Source of the DNA: Candidatus Nealsonbacteria bacterium
GTDB taxonomy: Bacteria > Patescibacteriota > Minisyncoccia > Minisyncoccales > JANBVM01
Reading direction: 5' to 3'
Assembly (NCBI GenBank): GCA_026016225.1
Contig: CP061210.1
Coordinates: 130,000 to 193,999, forward strand
Length of the DNA stretch: 64,000 nt
Shown: positions 20,955-33,948 of the stretch, piece after piece
Position numbering within the stretch: position 1 is the first letter of the stretch
Layout: every line of letters starts with the position of its first letter
Translations under genes and position numbers: made by a program
Notes under the pieces: model-generated
Told to the model about the DNA's origin: nothing
Database searches by the model: none
Seen by the model: the letters and a program-made list of their open reading frames with translations, nothing else

Positions 20955-22986
20955 AAAAGAAGAACTACAGTCTCTTAAAGACAAGTTAAAAGAAGAGATG
21001 CCCGGGGAAAAAGAGGAAAGGTTAGAGTTTTTAAAAAGAGAAGAAATAAGAACAATGAAAAAAGATATTGAAAAACTTCGTGAGGTTGAAGCTGAAAAAG
21101 AAAAAGAAAGAATTACTACTTTAGAGTCTGGGAAAGAAATAAAGAAAGAAGAAGTTGAAAAAGAAGAAGTTAAGGAAGAAGAAGAAGTTAAAGGAGAAGT
21201 AAAAAAGCCGGAACCAGAATACGAACCTCAACCTCAAGGAACACTTATTCCCACCCCTCCTAAAAAAGCTTCTTCTTTAAAAAAGGTTTTGGTTAGAATT
21301 GGTTTTGTTCTAATCTTTATTTTTATTCTGGGATTTATTTATTGGTTTTTTGCTCCTGAAATAACAATCTTTAAAGATATCTTTCCCCGTAAAGAAGAAC
21401 CTGTTACGGAAGAGGAAGAACCTGTTACAGAAGAAGTTGAAGAAGAAGAGGAAGAAGTTGAAATTTCTGTTCCCTCTCCTTTGCTTTCGGTTGAGAAAGT
21501 TCTCACTTTTGAAATCTCTGAAAACGAAGAAATCCCTTCAATTATAGAACAATTAATAATTGAAGAATTGCCCCAGAATAGCTTCACTCAAATTGTAATT
21601 AAAAATGAAAAAGAAAATCAGCTGGCAGATTTAGAAGATATTGCTCAAGCTTTTCAGATTGAGATGGTCCCTGAGGTGATACAAAAATTAGATGTAAAAG
21701 ACTTTAACTTACTAATCTACCCCCAAGAAGAAGGCAGAAAAGAAGTTTTTATAATTAAAATTAAAGAGGAGGAAAATTTGCCGGAGGCTCTAAAAATTTG
21801 GGAGACAAAAATAACCCAAGAAGGACTATTTATCTCAAACAATAAAATTTCAACCATATCCTTTTCTTTCAAAACTTTTATATTTAAAGAAGATAAATTT
21901 TCTATTCGATATCTGACTATTTCTAAAAATGATTCAGGGGTATGTTATACTTTATTTGAAAATTACCTTATTTTATCTTCTTCATTTAAGAGCATGCAAA
22001 AAGCTGTTAGAGAACTAAGAGTCTCAATAGCTTCTAAATTGCAAGAAAAAATTGGTCAGTTGTTTATTGTTGGTTTTGAAGGAAAAACAGTAACTCCGCA
22101 ATTGGAAGATTTTTTCAAAAAATACAAACCGGGAGGAGTCTTATTGCTTTCTAAAAATATTGAAAACGAACAACAGTTAAAAAGTCTAATTAAAGACCTC
22201 CAAGACCTTTCTAAAAAAGAAACTGGTCTTTCACTTTTTGTTGCCGTTGACCAAGAGGGAGGACCAATATCCCGAATCGCATTTTTAGAAGAAAAAACTG
22301 TTCAATCAGAAATTGAGGATACGTATAGTTCTTATGAAATCGGGCTGAAAAGAGGTGAAGAACTTAAAGAATTGGGAGTAAATGTCAATTTAGCGCCACT
22401 TTTAGACTATATGAAAGAAGAGGATTTTTGGTTTAATCGTTCTTTTCAAAAATCACCCCAATTATCCGGAGAGTTAGCAAAATCTTTAATTTTAGGACAG
22501 AAAGAAGCTGGAATTTTAACAGCTATTAAACACTTCCCCGGATATGTAAATATTCCTTTTAATCCGGAGGTAAAACTGGCAACGGTTTTGACTCCAGAAA
22601 TATCACAATTCAAAAAAGCAATGGAGGCTAAACCTGAACTAATAATGGTTTCAAATACAGTATACACAGATATTGATTCTCTTCTGCCCTTTACGTTTTC
22701 CCAAAAAGGAATTCAATATCTAAAAACTAATTTAGATTCCGAAGCTTTAGTAGTTTCGGACGATTTAGCACAGAACTCTTTGTTGGAAAAGTTCTCTATA
22801 AAAGAAATAGTAACCAAACCAATCAAAGCCGGAGTAGATATGCTTATTTTTTCTGGTTGGGGGGCTCCGGTTAATCAAGCTTTAGATAGTTTCTTGACAG
22901 CTGTAATAAACAAAGAAATCTCTGAAATAAAAATTGATATAGCTGTTTCAAAAATTATTCAATTAAAAGAAACATTATTAAAATAA
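20938..22986 (+). CDS. glycoside hydrolase family 3 (NagZ-like beta-N-acetylhexosaminidase) with Glu-rich N-terminal region and TM anchor
   Basis: The C-terminal half has GQLFIVGFEG, AVDQEGG, KHFPGY and SDDL motifs of GH3/NagZ. The N-terminus is a K/E-rich coiled region plus one TM helix. Confidence 0.75.
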   Translation: MPEENKKEELQSLKDKLKEEMPGEKEERLEFLKREEIRTMKKDIEKLREVEAEKEKERITTLESGKEIKKEEVEKEEVKEEEEVKGEVKKPEPEYEPQPQGTLIPTPPKKASSLKKVLVRIGFVLIFIFILGFIYWFFAPEITIFKDIFPRKEEPVTEEEEPVTEEVEEEEEEVEISVPSPLLSVEKVLTFEISENEEIPSIIEQLIIEELPQNSFTQIVIKNEKENQLADLEDIAQAFQIEMVPEVIQKLDVKDFNLLIYPQEEGRKEVFIIKIKEEENLPEALKIWETKITQEGLFISNNKISTISFSFKTFIFKEDKFSIRYLTISKNDSGVCYTLFENYLILSSSFKSMQKAVRELRVSIASKLQEKIGQLFIVGFEGKTVTPQLEDFFKKYKPGGVLLLSKNIENEQQLKSLIKDLQDLSKKETGLSLFVAVDQEGGPISRIAFLEEKTVQSEIEDTYSSYEIGLKRGEELKELGVNVNLAPLLDYMKEEDFWFNRSFQKSPQLSGELAKSLILGQKEAGILTAIKHFPGYVNIPFNPEVKLATVLTPEISQFKKAMEAKPELIMVSNTVYTDIDSLLPFTFSQKGIQYLKTNLDSEALVVSDDLAQNSLLEKFSIKEIVTKPIKAGVDMLIFSGWGAPVNQALDSFLTAVINKEISEIKIDIAVSKIIQLKETLLK

Positions 22987-22991
22987 CCCCT

Positions 22992-23357
22992 GTGAACCAA
23001 AAAGCACTTAAGAAAATAAAAGAAAAATTAAAAAGAGAAAAACTACAAATTGAAAAAGAACTTGAGAGTTTCGCTAAAAGAGATAAGAAAGTAGAAGGAG
23101 ATTGGGATGCTCGTTTCCCCAAGTGGAATGGAGGAGGAAGCAGTTCTAATATGGAAATTGCTGCTGATGAGGTTGAAGAATACAGTAAACTTTTATCTTT
23201 AGAATATGTTTTGGAGATACGTCTTAAAAATATCAATTTAGCTTTAGAAAAGATTAAAAAGAAAAAGTATGGAGTTTGTGAAAAATGCGGCAAAAAAATT
23301 CCTAATAATCGTTTGGAAGTATATCCTGAAGCAAGATATTGTTTAAAATGTAAATAA
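22992..23357 (+). CDS. DksA/TraR-family C4 zinc-finger protein
   Basis: C-terminal CEKCGKKI...ARYCLKC four-Cys finger preceded by a coiled coil. GTG start. Confidence 0.65.
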   Translation: MNQKALKKIKEKLKREKLQIEKELESFAKRDKKVEGDWDARFPKWNGGGSSSNMEIAADEVEEYSKLLSLEYVLEIRLKNINLALEKIKKKKYGVCEKCGKKIPNNRLEVYPEARYCLKCK

Positions 23358-23495
23358 TATTAATAAAGCTGTTCTTTCTCCTCTCGCTCTTTTTTTTGTT
23401 TCCTCTCTTCTCGTTTTCTTACTATTTCTCGCCAATCCATTACATATCATCTTCTTTAATTTACTGCTTTACAAATAAAATATCTTTGAGCTTTT

Positions 23496-23540
23496 GTCAA
23501 AGTTTAAAACCTTTGACTTTTTGTTTTTGGAATAAAAAAA
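23496..23540. repeat. terminator-like hairpin module, inverted copy of 29943-29988
   Basis: GTCAAAG-8 nt-CTTTGAC followed by TTTTTGTTTTT. Its reverse complement aligns with 29943-29988 over about 45 nt with few mismatches. Confidence 0.75.
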
Positions 23541-23586
23541 GATGTGTTTCTTGTACCTCTTTGATTGAAAAAATAAAGGACAATAA

Positions 23587-24327
23587 TTATTTCTCGGCTG
23601 TCACTTCTTTTGTTTCTTCGATTCTCTCTTCTACTTTTATTCCACAGAAAGGACAAAACGAGACTATTGATGTTAATTGTACTCCACAAGAGGGACAATA
23701 GAATTCACTTGCCTTTTCCTTAACTTGTGCAACCTTCGCGAGCTTCTCTCTTAATTTCTCAATTGTTTTTTTAGCTTTCTCTTCTACCTCTCTTTTAGCT
23801 TGTTCAATTTTTACTAGTTTCTTTTTTAACTCCCTAATTGTTTTTTTTGTTTTTCTTTCCGCTTTTTCCTCAGACTTCTTTTTAGATTTCTTTTCATGCA
23901 TTTCTTTAGGTTTTTCCTTCACTTCAGGCTCATTTTCATCTTTGATATTTCTTTGGACTACAGTGACTTTAATACTTTTCTGTTTAAGACTTAAGTGAGT
24001 AGGATATCTTTTAAGTGTATCTACAAAAAGAGCTTTCTTAGTTATTTTCCTTCTTTTGCCATCAAACGAAGTTTTCATAACCGTATCCAATACTGCACTT
24101 CCTTCCTTTAAATCTACCCACACATGGCTATTACATCTTTCACAGAATAATGGCAGAAATTTACTGTTGTAGTGGTAGTATCCCTTATAATCTTTAATTT
24201 CTGCTTCAGTAATTTCTTTAACTTCTATTTTACCCTGACACTCTTTATGGTATATAATATCTCCAACATTAACTTCTTTACCCTCAATTGTTTCTTCAAC
24301 CGCAATAGTAAAAGTTCTTTTTGTCAT
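23587..24327 (-). CDS. hypothetical protein with Lys/Glu-rich coiled coil and C-terminal zinc ribbon
   Basis: 246 aa. It has a C-terminal YCPSCG...FCPFCG ribbon and an internal CERC. A strong promoter/RBS module lies upstream. Confidence 0.6.
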   Translation of the reverse strand: MTKRTFTIAVEETIEGKEVNVGDIIYHKECQGKIEVKEITEAEIKDYKGYYHYNSKFLPLFCERCNSHVWVDLKEGSAVLDTVMKTSFDGKRRKITKKALFVDTLKRYPTHLSLKQKSIKVTVVQRNIKDENEPEVKEKPKEMHEKKSKKKSEEKAERKTKKTIRELKKKLVKIEQAKREVEEKAKKTIEKLREKLAKVAQVKEKASEFYCPSCGVQLTSIVSFCPFCGIKVEERIEETKEVTAEK

Positions 24328-24412
24328 TTTACATCACCTTTTAATTCTGATTTTATTTAATTATAAATTTACCATTTTTATCTTACCTCATCTTTCAATT
24401 TTTGTCAAATGG
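24328..24412 (-). promoter_or_regulatory. promoter/RBS module (TTGACA-17-TAAGAT, downstream TATAAT, AAAGGTGAT RBS); inverted copy of 29645-29725
   Basis: The reverse complement reads TTTGACAAAAATTGAAAGATGAGGTAAGAT...TATAATTAAA...AATTAAAAGGTGATGTAAAATG. It aligns block by block with the region upstream of 29726. Confidence 0.7.
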
Positions 24413-24450
24413 TTTTGTTTTGGGAATTGGAAAATTCTGCTATATTAAAG

Positions 24451-24553
24451 CAATATGCCCTCTAAAGTCTTCTCAATAGCCATTGTGGGCTTGTCAACTC
24501 AAATCATTGAAATAAAAATAAATGCCTCATACGGATTGAGGCATTTTGAAATT
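24451..24553 (+). repeat. 103-bp direct repeat, copy A (comM 5' end)
   Basis: It aligns without gaps to 27964-28066 with 6 mismatches by my count. Confidence 0.9.
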
Positions 24554-24583
24554 AAGGGGTTTCTCTCGGATTTTTGTTTTTAA
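24455..24583 (+). pseudogene. orphan 5' fragment of comM/yifB (first 33 codons, then divergent tail and stop)
   Basis: It encodes MPSKVFSIAIVGLSTQIIEIKINASYGLRHFEI. The intact gene at 27968 begins MPSKVFSTAIVGLSAQIIEIETDASYGLRHFEI. Similarity ends at 24553 and a stop follows at 24581. Confidence 0.8.
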
Positions 24584-24638
24584 GTTATTTTTGATAAAAT
24601 AGTAATAAGAGGGAGGTTATAAAGAAATTCAAAAAAAT

Positions 24639-25031
24639 ATGAAAATTAATCCCAAAAAAGAAAGAAAAGAACTACCACCAGAAAAGGTTAAAGAAACACC
24701 TGAAAAATTGTATATAGAAAGAGAAACAAAAATAGAAAAAGAAAAACCTTTAACCGAAGAAGAAAGAAGAAGAATTAAAGAAAAGTATGAAGAGGAATTT
24801 AGAAAAATGAAGCTGAGTCCTGATATGGAAGAAGAAGCAAAAGAGGAAGCAAAACAGATTAAAACGCTTGAAAAAGAAGGAAAAATTAATCGATTATTAA
24901 ATATTGCTAAAGAGAAAGGAGTATATTTTGCAGTAAAAGTAGCAGAAAATATGAACGACCCTTATACCTTAGACATCCTTCATGATATTTTGGCTAAAGA
25001 TGCATTTTATAAAAGGTTTTTAAAACAATAA
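24639..25031 (+). CDS. hypothetical Lys/Glu-rich protein
   Basis: 130-aa ORF immediately upstream of, and co-oriented with, the coupling-protein gene. No recognisable motif. Confidence 0.45.
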   Translation: MKINPKKERKELPPEKVKETPEKLYIERETKIEKEKPLTEEERRRIKEKYEEEFRKMKLSPDMEEEAKEEAKQIKTLEKEGKINRLLNIAKEKGVYFAVKVAENMNDPYTLDILHDILAKDAFYKRFLKQ

Positions 25032-25034
25032 ATT

Positions 25035-27488
25035 ATGGAGATTTTATATTGGATAGTTCTCATTTTGATTTCAGTAATAGGGGGAGTGCTGATTTTTCTC
25101 TTTTTAAAGAAAAAAGAAAAGGGACAAGTTTTAGGGAGCTTAGATATGTCCCTTTTTTTAGTGAGTATGCCAAAGCACAGATTAAAAAAAGAAGAAATGA
25201 CAGGAAAAGAAGAAAAAACCTTAATTGGCCAGATGGAACAGGTTTTAAGTAGTTTTCTTTATCTAAAAAAGCCAGGCTTTTTTGAAAGAATTATTTTTGG
25301 TTCTCCGAGGGTAGTCCTTGAGATTGCTTCTCAGATCGGTGGAACCGATATTTCTTTTTATGTAGCTGTACCTAAATTTTTGGAAACTGCTCTTGAAAAG
25401 TATATCCAGGGGGTTTATCCTCGAGCTTTGGTAGAAAAAATTCCCCAAGATTACACTATTTTTGAACCGGGTGGTTTTACTGCAGGCTGTTATTTAAAAT
25501 TAAAAGAACCTCTTCTTTTTCCAATTAATACATACAAAAACTTAGAAAAAGACCCTTTAGCTACTATAACCAATACCTTAAGTAAAATTGCCCCAGATGA
25601 AGGAGCAGCAGTTCAAATAATTATTAAACCCTCACCATTGAATTTAAAAAAAATAGGCGACAAAGCTTTAGCGAAAATCAGAGAAGGCAAAACCGTGAAA
25701 AATGCGATTTCTGAAGCATGTAGGTCTCCTGCTCTTAGTTTTTTAATAGAGCTATTTAAGGTTTTTTCAGCCCAACCTGGCAAAAAGCCAGATGAAAGAA
25801 GAATGGAAGAATTCAGGAGGACCGGCTCTAAGATTGATGAAAGCACTATTCAATCTATTCAAACTAAAATCCAAAAACCAATTTTCGAAACCAATATTAG
25901 ATTGCTAACTTCAGCTCCAACTTTAGAAAGAGCAAAAGAAATCTTGAGCCATCTTCAAGGAGCTTTCAGTCAATTTTCACTTTTTGTTTCCAATAGTTTC
26001 TATATGGTTGAATTGAAGAAAAAACGCCTTAAAAAACTTGTTTATGATTTTAGTTTTAGAAACTTTAACCCAAATCAAAGGGTTATTTTAAACATTGAAG
26101 AACTAACCAGTATTTACCATTTTCCCACTTATTATACTGAAACTCCTTATATTAAAGCTGCCAAAAGCGGGGTAGCAGCTCCTCCTGCTGAACTTCCAGA
26201 AAAGGGATTAAATTTAATTGGCAAAGTTCTTTTCCGGGGAGAAGAAAAAAGAGTTTCTTTTGCTACCAGAGAAGACAGAAGAAGGCATTTTTACATTATA
26301 GGTCAAACCGGAACCGGAAAAAGCAGCTTATTGCGAGAAATGATCCGCCAGGATATTCAAAATGGCGAAGGAGTAGCAGTTATAGATCCCCACGGCGATT
26401 TAATTGAGGACACCTTGGCTAATATCCCAAAAGAAAGAATAAAAGATGTAGTTTTATTCGAACCTTTTGATATCAGCCGACCTATAGGCTTAAACATGCT
26501 TGAATATGAAAGCCCCAGCCAAAAAGATTTTGCCGTCCAGGAAATGATAGCTATTTTCCATAAACTTTTCCCGCCAGAGATTATAGGTCCAATGTTTGAG
26601 CATTATATGAGAAATGCTATGTTAGCCATAATGGCAAACAAAGAAGACCCAGGTACTTTGGTTGAAATCCCCAGAATGTTTACTGATGAAGAGTTTATGT
26701 CTCATAAACTGAAAAGTGTTACAGACCCTATAGTTAAAAGCTTCTGGCTAAAAGAGTGGAAACAAACAACAGGTGCTACCAGGTCTGATATGTTAGGATA
26801 TGTTGTTTCCAAAATTGGTCGTTTTATTGGAAATGAAATGATGAGAAATATTATTGGTCAACCTCATTGTGGTTTTGATTCAGGAAAAATAATGGAGGAA
26901 GGTAAGATTTTCTTAGCCAATCTTTCCAAAGGATTAACAGGCGAAGTAAATTCTTCTTTGTTGGGCTTAATTTTGGTTTCAAAAATGCAAATGGCAGCAA
27001 TGAGAAGAGCCAAGGTTCCAGAAGAAAAAAGAAAAGATTTTTATTTATACATTGATGAGTTTCAAAATTTCACCACCAACAGTATCGCCACAATTCTTTC
27101 TGAAGCCAGAAAATACCGCTTAAATTTGATTTTAGCTCACCAATATATTCCTCAACTTGTTCCTGAAATCAGAAATGCTGTTTTGGGTAATGTGGGAACA
27201 ATTGGAGCCTTCAGAATTGGAGCCGACGATGCTGAATTTTTGGAAAAACAATTTGAGCCAGAATTCTCTCGGTTTGATTTGGTTAATCTTGACAATTTCA
27301 ATTTAGTGGTAAAGATGATGATTAAAAATAATATCTCAGAAGCTTTTAGAATTCAAACATTTCCTCCTAAAAAAGGAAATCTAAAAATTATTGAATTAAT
27401 CAAAAAAATCTCAAAACAAAAATACGGCCGGCCAAAAGCGTTGGTTGAGACTGAAATCTTAAAAAGGTCAAGGTTAATCAGTCTTTAA
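25035..27488 (+). CDS. VirD4/TraD-like type IV coupling protein (membrane-anchored P-loop ATPase)
   Basis: N-terminal TM helix, Walker A GQTGTGKSS, Walker B LYIDEFQNF, and EARKYRLNLILAHQYIPQL, which is typical of T4CP/TraD-like ATPases. Confidence 0.75.
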   Translation: MEILYWIVLILISVIGGVLIFLFLKKKEKGQVLGSLDMSLFLVSMPKHRLKKEEMTGKEEKTLIGQMEQVLSSFLYLKKPGFFERIIFGSPRVVLEIASQIGGTDISFYVAVPKFLETALEKYIQGVYPRALVEKIPQDYTIFEPGGFTAGCYLKLKEPLLFPINTYKNLEKDPLATITNTLSKIAPDEGAAVQIIIKPSPLNLKKIGDKALAKIREGKTVKNAISEACRSPALSFLIELFKVFSAQPGKKPDERRMEEFRRTGSKIDESTIQSIQTKIQKPIFETNIRLLTSAPTLERAKEILSHLQGAFSQFSLFVSNSFYMVELKKKRLKKLVYDFSFRNFNPNQRVILNIEELTSIYHFPTYYTETPYIKAAKSGVAAPPAELPEKGLNLIGKVLFRGEEKRVSFATREDRRRHFYIIGQTGTGKSSLLREMIRQDIQNGEGVAVIDPHGDLIEDTLANIPKERIKDVVLFEPFDISRPIGLNMLEYESPSQKDFAVQEMIAIFHKLFPPEIIGPMFEHYMRNAMLAIMANKEDPGTLVEIPRMFTDEEFMSHKLKSVTDPIVKSFWLKEWKQTTGATRSDMLGYVVSKIGRFIGNEMMRNIIGQPHCGFDSGKIMEEGKIFLANLSKGLTGEVNSSLLGLILVSKMQMAAMRRAKVPEEKRKDFYLYIDEFQNFTTNSIATILSEARKYRLNLILAHQYIPQLVPEIRNAVLGNVGTIGAFRIGADDAEFLEKQFEPEFSRFDLVNLDNFNLVVKMMIKNNISEAFRIQTFPPKKGNLKIIELIKKISKQKYGRPKALVETEILKRSRLISL

Positions 27489-27539
27489 TTAAAATCTGCC
27501 TGAAAAAGGGGAAAACAGATATTTCCTTAAATCATCCGC

Positions 27540-27569
27540 TTGACAATGGTTTTATTCAAAAGCTAAAAT
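27540..27569 (+). promoter_or_regulatory. putative sigma70-type promoter (TTGACA-18-TAAAAT)
   Basis: TTGACA at 27540-27545 and TAAAAT at 27564-27569, 24 nt upstream of the ATG at 27593. Confidence 0.5.
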
Positions 27570-27592
27570 AAGACAGATAAAGAGAATAAATT

Positions 27593-27862
27593 ATGCCGAA
27601 GAAAAAAAGCAAACAATCGACCTCTTTGAAAGAAATAGAAAAGTTGCTATCTCAACAGACTGTTGTTATTCTTTCGGCTGTAGATGAAAGATTAAAGAAA
27701 ACAGAACTTCGAATTAATAAAAAGATTGATAAACTCACAACAACCCTTGATAGATTCTTAAAAGGACTAAAAGATATTGAAGACGAATTTCAGGCAATGA
27801 AACTCGATATTAATCGAATGAAAAAAGTAATTAAAGAAAAACTTGACGTAGATTTGTTTTAG
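27593..27862 (+). CDS. hypothetical coiled-coil protein
   Basis: 89-aa ORF with its own promoter-like and terminator-like signals. Confidence 0.5.
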   Translation: MPKKKSKQSTSLKEIEKLLSQQTVVILSAVDERLKKTELRINKKIDKLTTTLDRFLKGLKDIEDEFQAMKLDINRMKKVIKEKLDVDLF

Positions 27863-27907
27863 AATTAACCTTTTTCAGGTTACATTTTCACTGTAAATCT
27901 TAAGACT

Positions 27908-27926
27908 GCCCGGAAACGGGCTTTTT
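27908..27926 (+). terminator. intrinsic terminator
   Basis: GCCCG-GAAA-CGGGC followed by TTTTT. Confidence 0.7.
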
Positions 27927-27963
27927 ATTCTGGATTATGCTTTAAGATTTTGTTAAACTTAAA

Positions 27964-28066
27964 CAATATGCCCTCCAAAGTCTTCTCAACAGCCATTGTG
28001 GGCTTGTCAGCTCAAATCATTGAAATAGAAACAGATGCCTCATACGGATTGAGGCATTTTGAAATT
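27964..28066 (+). repeat. 103-bp direct repeat, copy B (5' end of intact comM)
   Basis: Partner of 24451-24553. Confidence 0.9.
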
Positions 28067-29488
28067 GTGGGACTCCCTGACAAAGCAGTGCAGGAATCAA
28101 GGGAGAGAGTAGGGGCTGCGATTGAAAGCTCAGGATTTAAATCTCCTCATCGTCAGCCTGTCAGGGTTCTGGTCTCTTTAGCACCGGCTGACCTTAAAAA
28201 ACAAGGTTCATTGTACGATTTGCCAATCGCCTTAGGTTATCTTTTAGCTGACAAAAAAATTAATTTTAATCCCGGAGGAAAAATAATCTTGGGTGAATTA
28301 GCTTTAGACGGCAGATTAAGACCCGTAAAAGGTGTGATATCTTTTGCTATAGCTTGCAAAGAAAAAGGTTTTTCTGAACTAATCTTGCCAAAGGAAAATG
28401 CTAACGAAGCGAGCTTAATAAAAGGGGTAAAAGTAATTGGCATAGAAAATTTAAGAGAAACTGTTGATTATTTAGAAGGAAAAAAGGAAATTAAACCTCG
28501 AGAAATAGAAATTAAGGATTTTCTCCAACATCCTGAGTATTCAATTGATTTAGGATATATTAAAGGACAAGAGTTAAGTAAAAGAGCCCTGGAAATTGTA
28601 GCTGCCGGCGGCCATAATCTTTTAATGATAGGACCGCCCGGGGCTGGAAAAACTCTTTTAGCAAAAGCTATTCCTTCAATCCTGCCTCCTCTTTCTTTTA
28701 AAGAATCATTAGAAGTAACAAAGATTTACAGTGTAGCTGGATTATTAGCTAAAAACAAACCTTTGATTTCGCAGAGACAATTCCGCTCACCGCATCACAG
28801 TTCCTCTGAAACAGCTTTAATTGGCGGTGGAATCCCTCCGAGACCTGGCGAAATAACTTTGGCTCATCGGGGAGTTTTATTTTTAGACGAATTTCCAGAA
28901 TTCCATCGCGATGTTTTAGAATCTTTGCGTCAACCAATCGAAGAAGGTAAAATAACAATTTCAAGAGCAAGATATTCCCTGACCCTGCCTGCGCGTTTCA
29001 CCTTAGTGACTGCCTCAAACCCTTGTCCCTGCGGTTATTACAAAGACCCTGAAAGAAACTGTACCTGCACTAATTCTCAAATCCAAAAATACAAAAGAAA
29101 ACTTTCAGGTCCCTTAATGGATAGAGTTGACCTTTTTATAACTGTTCCTCAATTAAAATATGATAAATTAACGGCAGCCGATGAGGAAAATTCAAGTCTA
29201 AAAATAAGAGAAAGGGTTGCCAAAACTCGTCAAATCCAACGAGAAAGATTTAAAGCAGAAAAAACCAACTCAGAAATAAAGATTCCCCAGATAAAAAAAT
29301 ACTGCCAGGTTGATCTTGCGAGTCAAAGTCTTTTAAGAAAATATGTTGATTCTGGAAAATTATCAGCCAGGGGTTATCATCGGGTTTTAAGGGTAGCACG
29401 CACTATTGCTGATTTGGAAAACTCAGAAAAAATCAGCTATCCGCACATTTCAGAAGCCCTAATGTATAGAATAAGAGAAGATGTTTAA
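27968..29488 (+). CDS. comM: YifB/ComM-family Mg-chelatase-like AAA+ ATPase
   Basis: Lon-like N-domain (LAPADLKKQGSLYDLPIALG), Walker A GPPGAGKT, Walker B FLDEFPEF, and the C-terminal ARGYHRVLRVARTIADL block. The ATG at 27968 is preferred over the TTG at 27950. Confidence 0.9.
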   Translation: MPSKVFSTAIVGLSAQIIEIETDASYGLRHFEIVGLPDKAVQESRERVGAAIESSGFKSPHRQPVRVLVSLAPADLKKQGSLYDLPIALGYLLADKKINFNPGGKIILGELALDGRLRPVKGVISFAIACKEKGFSELILPKENANEASLIKGVKVIGIENLRETVDYLEGKKEIKPREIEIKDFLQHPEYSIDLGYIKGQELSKRALEIVAAGGHNLLMIGPPGAGKTLLAKAIPSILPPLSFKESLEVTKIYSVAGLLAKNKPLISQRQFRSPHHSSSETALIGGGIPPRPGEITLAHRGVLFLDEFPEFHRDVLESLRQPIEEGKITISRARYSLTLPARFTLVTASNPCPCGYYKDPERNCTCTNSQIQKYKRKLSGPLMDRVDLFITVPQLKYDKLTAADEENSSLKIRERVAKTRQIQRERFKAEKTNSEIKIPQIKKYCQVDLASQSLLRKYVDSGKLSARGYHRVLRVARTIADLENSEKISYPHISEALMYRIREDV

Positions 29489-29512
29489 GATTTAGTTGAA
29501 AAAAGAAGCTTG

Positions 29513-29537
29513 AAAAAAGGAGCTTAGCTCCTTTTTT
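29513..29537 (+). terminator. intrinsic terminator after comM
   Basis: 11-bp stem AAAAAAGGAGC / GCTCCTTTTTT around a TTA loop. Confidence 0.75.
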
Positions 29538-29540
29538 CAC

Positions 29541-29651
29541 TTCCACAACTTCCATAGACCTCATCAGTCTCTAGGTTATATTCCACCTATTAATTTTCAG
29601 ACAAAATACCTAAAAGTGTTACCTATGTACCCTTCTAGTACATCTGTTTGA
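29541..29651 (+). pseudogene. C-terminal remnant of a DDE (rve-type, IS3/IS481-like) transposase
   Basis: It translates to FHNFHRPHQSLGYIPPINFQTKYLKVLPMYPSSTSV*, which matches the conserved YNxxRPHxSLGYxxP tail of rve integrase-core transposases. No upstream coding part remains. Confidence 0.65.
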
Positions 29652-29725
29652 CAAAAACTAAAAGATGAGGTAAAAATAGGTAGATTAAAATTATAATTAA
29701 AAATTACAAATTAAAGGTGATGTTT
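29645..29725 (+). promoter_or_regulatory. promoter/RBS module (TTGACA 29648-29653, TATAAT 29692-29697, AAAGGTGAT RBS); inverted copy of 24328-24412
   Basis: It shares the blocks TTTGACAAAAA.T.AAAGATGAGGTAA, TATAATTAAA and AATTAAAGGTGATGT with the reverse complement of 24328-24412. Confidence 0.7.
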
Positions 29726-29914
29726 ATGGTTTATGGAGAGCAATGGGAATATAAGGTTATAGAATTGGATTGGGAGCCCAAAAAACGAGAAAAGCAATTG
29801 AATCATCTTGGATTTCAAGGATGGGAATTAGCAGCTGTAACAGCATATGAAGCATATAAAGGGTGGTCAGGTACTCCAATGAGATATGCATACCTTAAAC
29901 GAAAGAAAGTTTAA
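29726..29914 (+). CDS. small DUF4177-like protein
   Basis: WEYKVIELD...QLNHLGFQGWELAAV resembles the DUF4177 pattern (YEYKV...LN.lG.eGWELV). The ATG at 29726 sits 5 nt after the GGTGA RBS. Confidence 0.5.
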   Translation: MVYGEQWEYKVIELDWEPKKREKQLNHLGFQGWELAAVTAYEAYKGWSGTPMRYAYLKRKKV

Positions 29915-29927
29915 TCTATTCAACATT

Positions 29928-29951
29928 TGGTGCTTAGCACCATTTTTTTTT
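29928..29951 (+). terminator. intrinsic terminator
   Basis: TGGTGC-TTA-GCACCA followed by nine T. Confidence 0.8.
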
Positions 29952-29988
29952 ATTTCAAAACAAAAAGTCAAAGGTTTTATACTTTGGC
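29943..29988. repeat. terminator-like hairpin module, inverted copy of 23496-23540 (serves the minus-strand M23 gene)
   Basis: GTCAAAG-8 nt-CTTTGGC. On the minus strand it is followed by TTTTTGTTTTG. It aligns to the reverse complement of 23496-23540. Confidence 0.75.
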
Positions 29989-30023
29989 TTTTAAGGTTAA
30001 AATAGAGTTAGAGTGTTTAGGGA

Positions 30024-31070
30024 TTAGTAGGCGAAAGGATTTCTGGCTCCGCTGACTCCAAAATGTACATGGCAACCTGTAGACATTCCTGCTCCCGGTG
30101 TTCCGGACTGTCCGCCCATTAAAGCTATTATTTGCCCCTGATAAACTTGATCGCCAGGATTAACAAAACTGCTCAAAATATGTCCGTACATTGTTACTAC
30201 TCCATTTGGGTGTAAAATTGTTAAATGATTCCCGGCGCCTCCAAAAGCCCAGCGGGAAGTAGAATTGGTTAATTTAACTTTCAGCACCGTGCCGCCGGCA
30301 GCAGCATATATTGACTCTCCGCATTTGCCGTGACTAAAATCAATCGCATTATACCAGTGAAGACCTTGAGTAATTCGACAGGGTAAAGATATTGGACAGA
30401 TAAAATAACTTTTACCTAACGGAACCCAGGTGGAAGCAGTTTGTACGGTAGGAGAAGGCATTACTCCGTTTGGAACAACTAAAATATCTCCAATAAAAAT
30501 ATCAGCCTCGCCTGAAAGCTGATTGAAAGAAACTATTTCTTCTGTTTTAGCTTTATAGTTTTTTGCAATAGCGCTAACAGTATCTCCTGATTTAACGTGG
30601 TGGATTATACCGGACACGGGCGGAATAATTAGTTTTTGTCCGGGTTGAATTGTTGTTTTTTGCAAATCATTAGCCCAGAGAATGCTATTTACAGAAACAT
30701 CAAATTTAGCAGCGATTGACCACAAACTATCTCCTTGTTCAACAATATACTCAACAATTGTTTTTTGAACGTCTTTAAAATCAAAACCTTCAAACAAAGC
30801 CCCCAAAACTTTTGGGGTAATGGTAAAAGGTGGACAGATTGCCCGAAAGCTATTCCTTTGCTCTAAAATAAATTCTGGTAGTTCTGGTTGTGATTTTTGA
30901 GACAAGCTCGCAAAAACATTCTGGGAATTGACAACACTTGCTGAAAATAAATCTAAAACCAAAACCTTCTCAGTGTTTCTTAAAGAACAGACGTAAACAA
31001 AGGTGATTAAAATAAGCGCTCCAAAAAGCGGTTTTAAAATTTCTTTCACTTTGTTATAAGAATCAGACAT
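30024..31070 (-). CDS. LysM-domain M23 family peptidoglycan metallopeptidase
   Basis: N-terminal TM helix, two LysM repeats (GDSLWSIAAKF..., GDTVSAIAKNY...), and M23 motifs HWYNAIDF and GCHVHFG. Confidence 0.85.
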   Translation of the reverse strand: MSDSYNKVKEILKPLFGALILITFVYVCSLRNTEKVLVLDLFSASVVNSQNVFASLSQKSQPELPEFILEQRNSFRAICPPFTITPKVLGALFEGFDFKDVQKTIVEYIVEQGDSLWSIAAKFDVSVNSILWANDLQKTTIQPGQKLIIPPVSGIIHHVKSGDTVSAIAKNYKAKTEEIVSFNQLSGEADIFIGDILVVPNGVMPSPTVQTASTWVPLGKSYFICPISLPCRITQGLHWYNAIDFSHGKCGESIYAAAGGTVLKVKLTNSTSRWAFGGAGNHLTILHPNGVVTMYGHILSSFVNPGDQVYQGQIIALMGGQSGTPGAGMSTGCHVHFGVSGARNPFAY

Positions 31071-31131
31071 TTTTTTCTATATCTTTCTATACTTCTATTT
31101 TCTAATATCATACATAAATGTCAAGTTTTAT

Positions 31132-31962
31132 ATGGACATCAAAACTGTAAAAAACTTGTTAAAAAAATACTGCATCAGACCTTTAAAAGGTTTAGGACAG
31201 AATTTTTTAATTAACAAAAGAGTTCTCAAAAAAATAATTAAAACAGCTAACCTTTCCCAAAATGACACTGTCTTAGAAATAGGACCTGGAATTGGAAATT
31301 TAACTTTGGAATTAGCAAAAAAGGCAAAAAAGGTTATTGCAATAGAAAAAGACAAAAAAATGTGTAAAGTTTTGAAAGAAGTGTTGGATTGTCAGAATAT
31401 TGGAAATGTTGAAATTATAAAAGGAGATGTTTTAAAGATTAAAAATGGTTCAATGGTTAAATGGCTAAATAGCTACAAAGTAGTTGCCAACCTACCATAT
31501 TACATAACCTCTCCTGTTATCAGAAAGTTTTTAGAAATAGAAAATCAGCCAAAAGAAATTGTTTTAATGGTTCAAAAAGAAGTTGCCAGAAGAATCTGTT
31601 CCCAGCCCCCGAAAATGAGTATATTAGCAGTTTCAGTCCAGTTTTATGCAAAACCTGAAATTATCTCTTTTGTCTCAAAAAAATCCTTTTGGCCCCAACC
31701 TAATGTGGACTCAGCCATCATCAAAATAACTCCAAAAAAAATCTCAACGAGAACAGTTCTCGTTGATTCGTTCTTTAAAATTGTTAAAGCTGGATTTTCT
31801 CATCCGAGAAAACAGCTAATAAATAATTTCTCTAAAGAATTAAAAATGAATAAAGAAAAAGTAAAAAATTGGCTTTTAAAAAACGGGATTCAGCCCAGCC
31901 AAAGAGCAGAAACTTTGTCTGTTAAAGATTGGTTAAAATTAGTTAAAGGTTATAACAATTAA
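31132..31962 (+). CDS. rsmA: 16S rRNA (adenine1518/1519-N6)-dimethyltransferase
   Basis: GQNFL, the VLEIGPGIGNLT SAM motif, and NLPYYITSP. Confidence 0.9.
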   Translation: MDIKTVKNLLKKYCIRPLKGLGQNFLINKRVLKKIIKTANLSQNDTVLEIGPGIGNLTLELAKKAKKVIAIEKDKKMCKVLKEVLDCQNIGNVEIIKGDVLKIKNGSMVKWLNSYKVVANLPYYITSPVIRKFLEIENQPKEIVLMVQKEVARRICSQPPKMSILAVSVQFYAKPEIISFVSKKSFWPQPNVDSAIIKITPKKISTRTVLVDSFFKIVKAGFSHPRKQLINNFSKELKMNKEKVKNWLLKNGIQPSQRAETLSVKDWLKLVKGYNN

Positions 31963-31998
31963 GTTGATATATCAAAGGAGTCATTATAAAATAAATTA

Positions 31999-32646
31999 AT
32001 GAAAGATTATAAAACTCTCATTTTAATAATTCTTTTTATTCTTCTTTTGAGCTTCATTACCTGGAAACGATTTGAAACTCTACAAGAGCCCTTTTCTTTA
32101 TATGAAACTAACTTTCCTAAATTTGAAATGCCAAAATTTGAATCTTTCTTTTCCCAAGAAGACAAGGGTTCTGAAGAATTTGTAAGCCCGGATGGAAAGT
32201 TGAAATTAAAATACTCTTCTAACTGGATAAAAATGGAAGAGGAAAGCTTAGAAACATTTAATAAAGAAATAGCAAGAGAAGGAGCGAAAAATTTATTTTT
32301 TGCCCAGAAGTCTAAAATTGAAGAAAATGCTCTCGCTATTCTAATCGTTCAGGAGCTAACTTTGGAAAAAGAAATAAGTTTAGAAGAAATTATTGAAGAA
32401 ATGAAAGAAAAAACAAAAGAAAAAGATGGGGAAATGGAAATTGAAAAATCGGAATTTGATGATAAAATAGCTTACCTTGAAGTAAAATATAAGCGAGATG
32501 AAACTCCTATTTTCTATTCAAAGGAAAAAATAATCCTTGAAGAAGATAAAGCTTATCTAATTATTTTCTTAAATTCCAATAATAATTGGTCGGGATTTGA
32601 AGAAGAAATAAATGAAATTTTTAATTCTATTCAAATTATTGATTAA
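31999..32646 (+). CDS. hypothetical membrane-anchored acidic protein
   Basis: 215-aa ORF with an N-terminal TM helix and a Glu-rich body. No recognisable motif. Confidence 0.4.
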   Translation: MKDYKTLILIILFILLLSFITWKRFETLQEPFSLYETNFPKFEMPKFESFFSQEDKGSEEFVSPDGKLKLKYSSNWIKMEEESLETFNKEIAREGAKNLFFAQKSKIEENALAILIVQELTLEKEISLEEIIEEMKEKTKEKDGEMEIEKSEFDDKIAYLEVKYKRDETPIFYSKEKIILEEDKAYLIIFLNSNNNWSGFEEEINEIFNSIQIID

Positions 32647-32685
32647 TTTGTGGTATAATTTAAATATAAGTATTATAATTAGAAT

Positions 32686-33948
32686 ATGAAGAAATTTATT
32701 AGGAATAAAAAAATTCTCCTTTTATTTGTACTTTTGGGATTTTTTTTCATTGTTTCAAAAACATTTGCTTTAGAAATAGACTGGCCAAAGTCTCCCGTAA
32801 GCGATACTCAATTAAATGATGACAGCGTGCTCGGAGATATGGTTAAGTATTTTTATGAGTGGGGAATTACTATGGGTGGATTAGTAACGTTTTTTTCTTT
32901 ATTAATTGGTGGATTCAAATATTTAACTTCAATAGGAAGTCCAACAGTAATGAAGGAAGCAACTGACCAAATAACCTCAGCTTTTTTAGGTCTCATTTTA
33001 CTTTTATCGTCCTGGTTGATTCTAAACACAATCAGCCCTCAATTTACAACTTTTCAAGCAAATCCTTTTAAGAAAAATCCCTATGGGGGAGAGTGGGGTG
33101 ATTTTTCATTCAAACAACAACCTTCTTGTGATTACGCCATTTTATATGACAATAGTGGAAACGAAATAGAAATTGAGGGAACCACGGAAACTGAATTAAC
33201 TGAAGACTTAGGGATAGTCCATTTAAAATCATCTCCTGTCTCTATTAGAGCCTTCCGCAAAGAAGAAGAGAAAGATAAAGAGTGTGGCCCAGAGGCATGT
33301 TTATGCTATGTAAAATTATATGCAGATGTCGATGAGGGAAGCTGTAATTTTATGGTAGCAGAGCATTTTGCATATCATAATGATCTTCCTAGCTTAATAG
33401 ATCCAGAATACAAACCTATAAAGTGTATACAATTAAAAGCGGGAGGAGCTTGTCGTCCCTGTTATAAGCCCGATGAAAGCGGTAAATGTATTTGGGTTGG
33501 AGACACTAATTGGGGAGAAGGCTTAGCTGAATGTTATGGAGATAACAAACGCTGTTTTGATAAAAAATGTAGAACTTGCGAGGGCTGGTGGGACAATGAC
33601 GGACTGGGTGGAAAGGGCTGCTGGTATAAAGAGAAAGGAGGAGAAGCTGGTCATAGTTGTAATAATGAAATTTGTAAAGACCATGGTGGATGTGTAGATG
33701 CAAATTGGAATGATGATGAGAATTGCACTATCTGCAGGCACTTTTTTGGTTCTGATGCTGGCTGTATTGACGATGCTCATCACCACGCCCCTTTTTGGGG
33801 AAACTCATGGCTCAAATATCCAACTCCCTACTGCTATTATAGGACGGGCGAGCAAGGCAGTTATGACCAGGATTGCGATTCAGGCATTCCAAAGCACTCT
33901 GCATCTTGGGAGAATTGGGAGTGGCGTATATGCGTGTGTGAGTATTAA
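32686..33948 (+). CDS. VirB2/TrbC-like T4SS pilin domain fused to a large cysteine-rich C-terminal domain
   Basis: A signal/TM segment is followed by two hydrophobic helices (GITMGGLVTFFSLLIGGFKYL, AFLGLILLLSSWLILNTI), arranged as in T4SS pilins. The C-terminal roughly 290 aa contain about two dozen Cys plus many Trp, Gly and Asp. Confidence 0.5.
   Translation: MKKFIRNKKILLLFVLLGFFFIVSKTFALEIDWPKSPVSDTQLNDDSVLGDMVKYFYEWGITMGGLVTFFSLLIGGFKYLTSIGSPTVMKEATDQITSAFLGLILLLSSWLILNTISPQFTTFQANPFKKNPYGGEWGDFSFKQQPSCDYAILYDNSGNEIEIEGTTETELTEDLGIVHLKSSPVSIRAFRKEEEKDKECGPEACLCYVKLYADVDEGSCNFMVAEHFAYHNDLPSLIDPEYKPIKCIQLKAGGACRPCYKPDESGKCIWVGDTNWGEGLAECYGDNKRCFDKKCRTCEGWWDNDGLGGKGCWYKEKGGEAGHSCNNEICKDHGGCVDANWNDDENCTICRHFFGSDAGCIDDAHHHAPFWGNSWLKYPTPYCYYRTGEQGSYDQDCDSGIPKHSASWENWEWRICVCEY

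Follow-up and report, generated by a model that had tools for sequence, protein, structure and literature searches.

Two small, unrelated genes on either side of comM in a Candidatus Nealsonbacteria chromosome are preceded by the same conserved module (P) and followed by terminator-like DNA, and what these modules frame differs between genomes that are otherwise nearly identical. The two genes and their modules are probably self-contained promoter–ORF–terminator cassettes, turned over by recombination and analogous to the PeSL cassettes of T4-type phages and to morons. The locus lies amid core genes on a 661-kb chromosomal contig, of which a 64-kb stretch, the window, was analyzed (Table 1).

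Table 1. Features in and around the two cassettes, in window coordinates.
Feature	Positions	Strand	Evidence
dksA/TraR-type zinc-finger gene	22992–23357	+	Pfam zf-dskA_traR, E 1.5e-11
P3, putative decayed third promoter module, no ORF behind	23420–23501	-	exact core-pattern match
T-left, outer module	23496–23540	-	inverted copy of 29944–29986
3′ untranslated stretch, left cassette	23541–23586	-	comparison with intact hairpins of L020 (left), L004, L001 and L003
Left-slot ORF, 246-aa zinc-ribbon protein (ZnR)	23587–24327	-	ORF list; Pfam; homologues P0001–P0003
P-left, putative promoter/5′UTR module	24328–24412	-	alignments; promoter scan 10/12
Displaced 5′ comM fragment, left end of 3.4-kb insert	24431–24558	+	direct repeat of 27944–28071
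Insert between cassettes, belonging to neither	24559–27943	+	Pfam TrwB_AAD_bind and DUF87
Intact comM (Mg-chelatase-like ATPase)	27950–29488	+	Pfam Mg_chelatase, E 1e-92
Transposase C-terminal remnant	29540–29651	+	translation; rve_3
P-right, putative promoter/5′UTR module	29647–29725	+	alignments; promoter scan; P-core profile
Right-slot ORF, 62-aa DUF4177-like protein	29726–29914	+	Pfam; homologues P0004–P0008
Putative terminator of right cassette	29929–29951	+	terminator scan; fold
T-right, outer module	29943–29988	+	repeat alignments; fold
LysM/M23 peptidase gene	30024–31070	-	Pfam LysM and Peptidase_M23; homologues

Comparison material

Exact look-ups of the two framed proteins of the window returned no record, and relatives were reached through homologues. 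The sample comprises three closely related genomes and a few short contigs, all found via genes of this neighborhood. The close relatives CP179892.1 (L020) and a JGI contig (L004) share 96–98% identity with the window in the flanking DNA. Metagenome-assembled contigs can be mis-joined at short repeats.

The upstream module

The regions upstream of the two genes are inverted copies of each other, as an earlier note had proposed: 24331–24409 (-) and 29647–29723 (+) are 79.3% identical over 82 columns (blastn against the whole window, E 2e-9). Their core, TTTGACAAAAAnTnAAAGATGAGGTAA, agrees at 25 of 27 positions, and the block AAAGGTGATGT stands directly ahead of both start codons. A search allowing up to three mismatches found P at two sites only in 64 kb (chance expectation 0.00–0.01). 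P-left is made up of a -35 TTGACA, a conserved 17-nt spacer, TAAGAT and an AT-rich unstructured leader, with AAAGGTGAT 5 nt ahead of the ATG; P-right has the same architecture and, compared with L004, an internal tandem duplication of 13–14 nt. Both modules are unstructured as RNA (z +0.9 for P-left and +1.4 for P-right), so that P is not read as a riboswitch or leader RNA; an Rfam search of 22.9–30.6 kb with E up to 1 returned nothing relevant.

The picture of two frames holds for these two copies but had missed an additional decayed one. The core of P3, at 23482–23501 (-), reads TTTGACAAAAGCTCAAAGAT, followed by AAAGCAGTAAATTAA and by an ATG with an immediate TAA, and its TTGAC shares bases with the 3′ arm of the outer hairpin. 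P3 matches the P-core profile weakly (E 0.076) and aligns with the putative promoter of a 169-aa gene in L003, 16 identical bases included.

Across the family, P combines a sigma-70-type TTGACA, a conserved 17-nt spacer with AAAGATGAGG, a weak -10 (TAGAAA in most copies, otherwise TAAGAT or TAAAAA) and then GAGGTAGATTAAAATTACAA, and its downstream part is an unstructured AT-rich leader with a strong ribosome-binding site. The spacer contains the direct repeat GAGGTAGA-N2-GAGGTAGA. Given the weak -10, P may depend on an activator or might not serve as the promoter.

The P-core profile returned 10 instances and one remnant in ~150 kb of Nealsonbacteria DNA, all at cassette sites and none outside them, a restriction that may be an ascertainment effect of neighborhood-based sampling. 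The strict promoter pattern matched once in the complete 689-kb genome of a relative (CP179887.1). Neither scan yielded the dozens of copies that the earlier note had named as the mark of a generic consensus. Over GTDB species genomes and metagenome contigs the strict pattern found one true relative, the rest being ordinary Firmicute promoters, and two scans of IMG/VR viral contigs gave only generic promoters or a coding match and no matching module.

Between cassettes with unrelated ORFs (DUF4177, ZnR and hydrophobic) the P core is 80–90% identical, the lineage background being ~76%. It also precedes 336-aa and 169-aa hypothetical genes and, in a different context in L028, a DUF4177 gene. The 3′ half of P and the two bases before TTGACA are ORF-specific, which suggests that the unit of exchange is the whole promoter–ORF–terminator cassette. 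The ribosome-binding stretch AATTAAAGGTGATGT is common to different cassettes in the lineage of the window, and the same ORFs elsewhere have another stretch. The 15-nt repeat ATTCCnAAAACAAAA flanks the left cassette, with one copy upstream of P-left and the other in T; it is borderline, being equalled in 7 of 100 shuffles, and was not taken as evidence for a recombination site.

The framed ORFs

The two framed ORFs are dissimilar (BLASTP E 2.8), as the earlier note had seen. Its zinc-ribbon and DUF4177-like labels correspond to Pfam matches, but both are below threshold (Zn_Ribbon_1, 24.2 bits vs. a cut-off of 25; DUF4177, E 8e-5, 23.2 bits vs. 25). Searches with PADLOC and PHROGs assigned the cassette proteins no convincing function, PDB sequence searches gave zinc-ribbon noise only, and the AlphaFold model of ZnR has a pLDDT of 45. 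The GC content of the cassettes (0.29–0.33) is the same as that of their surroundings, with no deviant composition. The ZnR gene is a mosaic: 23627–23860 (231 nt) is 94–95% identical by blastn to ZnR genes of lineages that are otherwise ~76% identical, indicating recombination across lineages.

The downstream modules

The proposed outer inverted pair of ~45 nt was likewise recovered: 23498–23544 and 29941–29986 are 91.5% identical over 47 columns (blastn against the whole window, E 2e-13), and the repeat search gave an ungapped repeat of 43 nt at 86%. This module (T) also has two sites only in 64 kb (up to three mismatches; chance expectation 0.00–0.01). T-left consists of the hairpin GTCAAAG-N8-CTTTGAC (23496–23517) and the tract TTTTTGTTTTTGGAATAAAAAAA; on the plus strand it is a predicted intrinsic terminator for dksA (terminator scan), and it is conserved in L020 and L004. 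T-right consists of a T-run, ATTTCAAAACAAAAA and the hairpin GTCAAAGG-N7-CTTTGGC. Its fold has an 11-bp extended stem (3′ region z -4.6), and it is predicted to terminate transcription in both directions, serving the convergent M23 gene as well. Orthologues of T-right adjoin M23 in L020, L022 and L026, and in L026 T occurs singly, with nothing inserted, between dksA and M23. The left and right T form two orthologous groups that are 2–3 fixed substitutions apart. The most plausible reading of T-left is that the resident M23-side terminator was copied once in inverted orientation and that this copy was fused to a decayed cassette promoter at the shared hexamer TTTGAC.

The right cassette has a predicted terminator of its own, formed by the hairpin GGTGCTTAGCACC (29929–29941) and a run of nine T. 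GGTGC-N-GCACC has a single instance in the window and is found in relatives at cassette 3′ ends only; the family-wide putative cassette terminator is a GGTGC-loop-GCACC hairpin, a T-run and ATTYC. In the left cassette the GGTGC..GCACC hairpin is degenerate (GGTACAAGAAACAC), with no strong hairpin in the fold (z -1.3). The idea of mirror-image terminator modules thus stood for the outer pair and failed for the right cassette's own hairpin, which is missing from the left copy. Promoter-like and terminator-like scores, together with the folds, fit the proposed roles of the modules.

Slot contents in relatives

The dksA-type gene is the conserved left neighbor, convergent with the left cassette and at the same position in L020, L004, L023 and L026; the M23 gene is the conserved right neighbor, convergent with the right cassette. 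No tRNA or att-like tRNA end was found near the slots in the window or L020.

Identity between the window and L020 is 98.3% over 20209–23540, 98.6% over 24291–27756, 97.6% over 27842–29487 and 94% over 29938–33578, and there is no nucleotide similarity across 23541–24290 or 29704–29937. The left slot of L020 encodes a 183-aa ZnR homologue (35% amino-acid identity) and the right slot an unrelated 246-aa hydrophobic protein; both L020 cassettes have P upstream, and a hairpin, T-run and T downstream. In L004, with both flanks 96–97% identical, P-DUF4177-hairpin occupies the left slot, where the window has ZnR. The breakpoints of similarity coincide with the upstream edge of P and with the outer module's T-run. 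Between the window and L004, the DUF4177 cassettes are ~81–85% identical and the flanks 96%, which excludes a simple recent move between slots.

Relatives without the segment, a comparison that the earlier note had called for, are L023, L021 and L026, whose corresponding sites hold no cassette. In L023, dksA, comM and M23 follow one another directly and no T module is present; in L021, comM is directly convergent with M23; and L026 has the arrangement given above. In more distant lineages, P and the GGTGC-loop-GCACC hairpin frame zinc-ribbon, DUF4177 and two hypothetical genes; their sites include the M23–rsmA interval and the position following an alaX-like gene. Taken across lineages, at least five unrelated ORF families lie between P and the terminator modules. 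A cassette-like frame with an exchangeable ORF was therefore right in that different ORFs lie between the same modules, with flanks 96–98% identical; but the frame is not fixed, and P travels with the ORF.

DNA between the cassettes

The comM duplication, coupling-protein insert and transposase remnant described between the frames are all real (128-nt repeat, Pfam TrwB/DUF87 and rve_3, respectively). The duplicated 5′ part of comM (128 nt, 88%) is present in L020 and L004 too. The insert carries ORFs of 130 aa, 817 aa (a TrwB/DUF87-type ATPase; phrog_5156, E 6e-80) and 89 aa, and is missing from L023, where comM directly follows dksA. A terminator is predicted for comM at 29511–29539 (terminator scan). 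The transposase remnant (41 aa; rve_3 positions 49–67 of 67, the C-terminal end; E 0.0018) is present in this genome only, with no counterpart in L020, and its frame ends at a TGA inside the TTGACA of P-right.

Proposed history and its alternatives

We propose that both mirror-image frames belong to a small family of self-contained expression cassettes. Each would comprise a conserved promoter/leader module, one small ORF of variable identity and a conserved terminator, and the cassette genes would be co-regulated. One cassette would lie on either side of comM, both directed outwards, each abutting a copy of a second hairpin with A- and T-tracts that would terminate the convergent outer gene (dksA or M23). 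Whole cassettes would be gained, lost and replaced between very close relatives, most likely by DNA uptake followed by homologous recombination through the shared modules and the conserved flanks. Natural competence is reported as demonstrated in Saccharibacteria, another group of the candidate phyla radiation (CPR) (PMC10187176). The replaced segments include the entire P, so that crossovers need not lie in P or T; crossovers in the long conserved flanks would look identical, and the shared modules might then be only regulatory.

In a second history, a promoter–DUF4177–terminator unit was duplicated once and inverted in the species ancestor, later replacements ran through the long flanks, and the modules are ordinary regulatory DNA of co-regulated genes with no role in exchange. 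Such an accident fits the two orthologous T groups, with their 2–3 fixed substitutions, as a single old duplication, and the whole P module does lie inside the replaced segments. The DUF4177 cassettes, left in L004 and right in the window at ~81–85% identity, resemble old paralogues. One duplication cannot, however, explain the family, because P and the GGTGC hairpin surround at least five unrelated ORFs far outside the species; and AATTAAAGGTGATGT, common to cassettes within a lineage and differing for the same ORFs elsewhere, points to exchange between cassettes. We consider this history unlikely, although it keeps some plausibility.

Inversion through the nested repeats is much less credible. 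An inversion at the outer modules and then one at the promoter modules would swap the ORFs in a shufflon-like manner, and both the two nested inverted-repeat pairs and the position of DUF4177 (left in L004, right in the window, outward in both) could be read in that way. A swap cannot, however, yield the third unrelated gene in the right slot of L020, and the DUF4177 cassettes differ by ~15–19% where the flanks differ by 4%. A double-inversion history was worked through and rejected. The repeats are also short (27-nt and 43-nt ungapped cores), and none of the ORFs in the segment has a Pfam match to an invertase or recombinase domain. The inner segment has one orientation in the window, CP179892.1 and L004, and inversion of the whole segment, which the earlier note had entertained, found no support in these few available genomes.

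More improbable still is another option of that note, a composite mobile island that would have inserted between dksA and M23 with the outer 45-nt pair as its terminal inverted repeats. The pair is inverted and at the outer ends, it encloses a transposase remnant and a TrwB-like ATPase, and dksA and M23 are adjacent in L026; but that empty site already holds the right module with the same M23-side flank, so the module is resident DNA and not an element end. Furthermore, comM stands between dksA and M23 in L023 and no module is present there, no target-site duplication extends beyond TTTT, the folds of the hairpins are those of terminators serving the outer genes (T-right as a bidirectional one), and there is no intact transposase, only the 41-aa remnant, which is missing in CP179892.1. 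A transposon history was worked through and rejected.

Finally, a generic promoter/terminator consensus of an AT-rich genome, or chance similarity, is scarcely believable: TTGACA-N17-TAnnnn is a common sigma-70 form and the strict-pattern matches in Firmicutes and viral contigs are ordinary promoters, but the chance expectation is 0.00–0.01 per window, the E-values are 2e-9 and 2e-13, no more copies occur in ~150 kb of related DNA, and conservation runs through spacer and leader, unlike in generic promoters.

Comparison with known systems

PeSL (promoter-early stem-loop) elements are regulatory cassettes of T4-type phages whose promoter/stem-loop motifs mediate orphan-gene shuffling, and for which circular intermediates and promoter/terminator activity have been demonstrated (Arbiol et al., 2010, PMC2839356; Comeau et al., 2014, PMC4122927). 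Exchangeable cassettes as proposed here resemble them in their short conserved composite motifs, in which a terminator stem-loop accompanies a sigma-70-like promoter whose -35 is preceded by an AT-rich stretch; by sequence, this make-up is present as TTGACA-N17-TAnnnn, ATTCCnAAAACAAAA, and a hairpin and T-run adjoining the P3 core (23482–23517). In both, copies of the motifs surround small orphan genes within a variable region (the cassette ORFs here are without assigned function), motif-bounded insertions, deletions and replacements occur between near-identical genomes (window vs. L020 and L004), and there is no dedicated recombinase. The present cassettes differ in that they reside in a CPR chromosome and not in a T4-type phage, are few (two and one remnant in 64 kb), have modules extending through a conserved spacer and leader, are mirror-oriented around a core gene and are described from their sequence.

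Morons of lambdoid phages and prophages, as Juhala et al. in 2000 and Hendrix and colleagues are said to have described them, are single ORFs with their own promoter and factor-independent terminator, located between genes that are adjacent in relatives. The cassettes have their own putative promoter and terminator, and their neighbors are adjacent in relatives (comM–M23 in L021 and L023; dksA–comM in L023). Unlike morons, they are accompanied by no prophage genes among the ORFs examined and their base composition is not deviant; that different ORFs share one promoter/terminator type lies outside the moron concept.

Putative mobile promoters are highly similar upstream DNAs ahead of non-homologous genes, with a cut-off of at least 80% over at least 50 nt (Matus-Garcia et al., 2012, PMC3488235). 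Here, the downstream ORFs are unrelated and the upstream neighbors (comM fragment and transposase remnant) are non-homologous, and the window pair, at 79.3% over 82 nt, is just below this cut-off. In contrast to mobile promoters, the 3′ module is shared too and the comparative data reveal whole-unit turnover. The minimal mobile elements of Neisseria are attributed to transformation and homologous recombination in the definition given in PMC3787668 (after Saunders and Snyder, 2002). The cassettes share with them variable content between fixed conserved genes among the closest relatives, without mobility genes, and differ in that alternative contents have portable promoter/terminator ends in common and the cassette type occurs at more than one site.

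Three further classes were rejected: integron gene cassettes (each cassette has its own promoter-like module, and the ORFs of 20.9–31.1 kb showed no integrase domain), composite transposons or islands (the L026 empty site keeps the right module, and only the 41-aa rve_3 remnant is present) and invertible segments or shufflons (inverted repeats are present, but no recombinase was found in the ORFs of the segment, and the three genomes have one orientation).

Implications

CPR genomes are tiny (~0.65 Mb here), and their gene gain and loss and their regulatory signals are poorly known. The locus offers a concrete, testable case, with defined promoter/leader and terminator modules that are better conserved than the genes they frame, and whole promoter–gene–terminator units that differ between genomes otherwise 96–98% identical. 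A bolder and rather doubtful extension is that this CPR clade possesses a cellular PeSL counterpart, a dedicated family of portable promoter/terminator modules that would make small accessory genes exchangeable between intergenic sites and between ~76%-identical lineages, possibly via circular intermediates or a site-specific step at the TTTGAC/hairpin junction, with the spacer and its direct repeat possibly serving one shared regulator.

If the modules drive exchange, modular shuffling of the T4-type-phage kind would also operate in a cellular chromosome. The modules would also be ready-made expression parts for genetics in these organisms. If they are only regulatory, they would still define a small co-regulated set of fast-evolving genes beside comM and a type IV secretion-like cluster.

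Mirrored Putative Promoter and Terminator Modules Frame Two Unrelated Genes

The regions upstream of ZnR (the left-slot ORF, between dksA and comM) and of DUF4177 (the right-slot ORF, between comM and the M23 peptidase gene) are inverted copies of one promoter/leader module, P, with 79.3% identity over 82 aligned columns (E-value 2e-9, blastn, whole window). A 27-nt core, TTTGACAAAAAnTnAAAGATGAGGTAA, is identical at 25 of 27 positions, and both copies have the RBS stretch AAAGGTGATGT 4–5 nt upstream of the ATG. The outer modules (T-left and T-right) match at 91.5% of 47 aligned columns (E 2e-13). At ≤3 mismatches, P and T were each found at only two sites in the 64 kb, with a chance expectation of 0.00–0.01. 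The P leaders fold into less structure than shuffled controls (z +0.9 and +1.4), and an Rfam search of the P region returned no relevant match.

As the earlier note had stated, the two framed ORFs are unrelated to each other, and the comM 5′-end duplication, the coupling-protein insert and the transposase remnant between the frames are real. The Pfam labels Zn_Ribbon_1 and DUF4177 both score slightly under the curated thresholds; each protein has a 100% identical counterpart in a Candidatus Nealsonbacteria MAG that includes a 661-kb contig. Within the comM insert, the ATPase is a full-length match to phrog_5156 (E 6e-80), and no integrase was found. At the position of the transposase remnant, the relative CP179892.1 has an unrelated 117-nt sequence. 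The tandem duplication in P-right is absent from the orthologous DUF4177 cassette (P, ORF and terminator hairpin) of the JGI contig L004.

Table. Features of the framed segment and of two relatives' loci (window positions unless a locus is named)
Feature	Position	Strand	Sequence or content
Decayed third promoter core (module 23420–23501)	23482–23501	−	TTTGACAAAAGCTCAAAGAT, between left outer hairpin and dksA end
T-left	23498–23544		
Direct repeat, one copy each side of left cassette	23519–23533; 24413–24427	−	ATTCCnAAAACAAAA
ZnR	23587–24327	−	246-aa zinc-ribbon ORF
ZnR, last third	23627–23860	−	C-terminal coiled coil and zinc ribbon
comM 5′-end duplication	24431–24558; 27944–28071		128 nt, first ~35 codons, 88% identity
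comM insert	within 24431–28071		3.4 kb; 130-aa protein, 817-aa TrwB/DUF87-type ATPase, 89-aa protein
Indel relative to CP179892.1	27757–27841		small ORF between ATPase gene and comM, 53 aa to 89 aa
Transposase remnant	29540–29651		41 aa matching C-terminal end of rve_3 integrase domain; frame stops at TGA within TTGACA of P-right
P layout			TTGACA, spacer 17–18 nt, weak −10 hexamer, AT-rich leader, strong RBS at leader end
P −10 hexamer			left TAAGAT; right TAAAAA/AAAAAT
P spacer direct repeat			GAGGTAGA-N2-GAGGTAGA
Tandem duplication in P-right	29686–29712		13–14 nt, AAAATTATAATTA / AAAATTACAAATTA
DUF4177	29726–29914	+	62-aa ORF
Right cassette's own terminator	3′ of DUF4177 ORF		GGTGCTTAGCACC + nine T
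T-right	29941–29986, 3′ of cassette terminator		ATTTCAAAACAAAAA, then second hairpin GTCAAAGG-N7-CTTTGGC
Further break in alignment with CP179892.1	33579–34010		inside type IV secretion-like gene cluster
comM 5′ fragment, locus L022	4040–4138	reverse	truncated; stop-codon end directly abuts M23-side T
tRNA-3′-end-like string, locus L028	within 500–1287		GTTCGAGTCCTGCCGCCGGAG, just 5′ of DUF4177-cassette terminator and promoter module

In the cassette sense, the A-tract of T pairs with the next U-tract in a predicted 11-bp stem, and the fold of the entire right 3′ region has a z-score of −4.6. On the opposite strand TTTTTGTTTT comes after the T hairpin, which there has the form of a terminator for the outer gene that converges on the cassette: dksA at the left end, M23 at the right. 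Because T is terminator-like on both strands, it is predicted to be a bidirectional terminator. The left cassette's own GGTGC hairpin is decayed. The direct repeat around the left cassette, of which a copy one base shorter lies in the right outer module, is borderline relative to chance (two matches in 7 of 100 shuffles).

Slot Contents Differ as Whole Units Between Near-Identical Genomes

The relatives compared here were identified from homologues of three genes of this neighbourhood (ZnR, DUF4177 and the M23 peptidase) and from the contigs that carry them. CP179892.1, whose M23 is 97% identical to that of the window, aligns with 98.3% identity over 20209–23540, 98.6% over 24291–27756, 97.6% over 27842–29487 and 94% over 29938–33578, and there is no nucleotide similarity across 23541–24290 or 29704–29937. 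Its left slot encodes a 183-aa zinc-ribbon protein with only 35% identity to ZnR, and its right slot a 246-aa hydrophobic protein unrelated to the window's right ORF. Both cassettes have P at the 5′ side and a GGTG(C/T)C...G(G/A)CACC hairpin, a T-run and the T module at the 3′ side. In L004, which is 96–97% identical to the window either side of the left slot, P-DUF4177-hairpin replaces ZnR there. Within one species-level lineage, the left-slot contents thus differ in three of three genomes and the right-slot contents between two.

The similarity breaks have one edge just 5′ of TTTGAC and the other within the T-run. Both the 3′ half of P and the dinucleotide 5′ of TTTGAC track the ORF, not the slot; the differing unit is therefore the whole promoter-ORF-terminator. 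The further break in the 94% alignment falls in a cluster annotated in CP179892.1 as pilin, PrgI, TraC-like and VirB4-like genes.

The Modules Probably Belong to a Small Family

In CP179887.1 and the JGI contig L003, whose genes are ~76% identical to those of the window, ZnR sits between M23 and rsmA and comes after another small gene, with a P-type module before each of the two; TTGGTGCCTAGCACCA and a T-run follow ZnR. L028 has an alaX-like gene followed by a DUF4177 gene that shares 55% identity with that of the window and has P and a GGTGC-type hairpin; a more distant DUF4177 gene (49%) in L027 has neither. L028 also contains two successive small genes, and behind each lie a T-run, ATTC and CAAA(A)CAGGTTCTAACATCGT; at its tRNA-like string (Table), ARAGORN detected no tRNA. 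Over its first 42 nt, P is 80–90% identical across these lineages and between cassettes with unrelated ORFs, and the ORFs behind this conserved P are unalignable or far more diverged than P.

A P-core profile was run against ~150 kb of Nealsonbacteria DNA, which took in 21 kb of the relative L023 as well as the remainder of the window, and gave no further copy. The complete 689-kb CP179887.1 contains one match to a strict P pattern; among GTDB species genomes the pattern matched no other Nealsonbacteria. GGTGC-N-GCACC occurs once in the window and, in Nealsonbacteria relatives, at cassette 3′ ends, save one further match in L027. Therefore, in the DNA covered by the ~150-kb profile search and the strict-pattern scan, P is not the generic consensus, present in dozens of copies, that the earlier note had considered.

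Sites Without Cassettes and the Probable Origin of T

In L023 (M23 71% identical), dksA, comM, M23 and rsmA are found with no cassette and no comM insert, and an uninterrupted comM directly follows dksA. Three further loci have M23 at 81% identity: in L021, comM is directly convergent with M23; in L026, convergent dksA and M23 have one T between them, which is oriented like the right copy of the window and shares its M23-side flank; and in L022, T adjoins M23, with a comM 5′ fragment before it. The cassettes, absent at these sites in less close relatives, are accessory. Since T lies beside M23 in both L026 and L022, T-right is DNA long resident next to M23. The junction of the comM fragment in L022 is another rearrangement at the same T-run.

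T-left was found in the window, CP179892.1 and L004 only, with 2–3 fixed substitutions relative to the right-hand group, and is best explained by a single inverted copying event in this lineage's ancestor. The decayed third promoter core starts exactly where T-left ends. Its alignment to the promoter that precedes a 169-aa gene of L003 includes 16 identical bases; behind the core there is only ATG-TAA, that is, an empty cassette promoter.

As a partial rival, a purely historical inverted duplication explains the mirror symmetry, but the spread of the family is left unexplained. Inversion of the segment finds no support: the orientation is the same in three of three close genomes, a search of the segment's ORFs showed no recombinase, and the right slot of CP179892.1 holds a third ORF type. 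The view of the T pair as terminal inverted repeats of an island is contradicted by L026, where the right-hand T is kept at an empty site, and no working transposase accompanies the pair.

Apparent Recombination and Related Systems

The last third of ZnR has 94–95% DNA identity to the ZnR genes of CP179887.1 and L003, the 5′ two-thirds are unalignable at the nucleotide level, and the neighbouring genes there are ~76% identical; ZnR is a recombinant mosaic. Within this lineage the ZnR cassette and the DUF4177 cassette have the RBS stretch AATTAAAGGTGATGT in common, and in other lineages the same ORFs carry different RBS stretches, a pattern that suggests homogenisation between cassettes.

Among described systems, the PeSL motif of T4-type phages comes closest. 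It joins a sigma-70-like promoter and an AT-rich stretch upstream to a terminator stem-loop; copies recur around orphan genes of hyperplastic regions, and near-identical phages differ by insertions, deletions and replacements that these motifs bound (PMC2839356; PMC4122927). Unlike the phage motif, the window cassettes sit in a bacterial chromosome, and a viral-contig search found no counterpart of the modules. Their likeness to PeSLs is one of sequence layout; they are not PeSL members in the strict sense. Morons, putative mobile promoters (PMC3488235) and Neisseria minimal mobile elements (PMC3787668) show partial likeness.

The evidence best supports a small family of putative self-contained expression cassettes, their functions being read from the DNA. 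Natural competence is reported as demonstrated in another CPR group (PMC10187176). At a few intergenic sites, whole cassettes would be acquired, lost or exchanged, with homologous recombination via the shared modules or conserved flanks as the likeliest mechanism.
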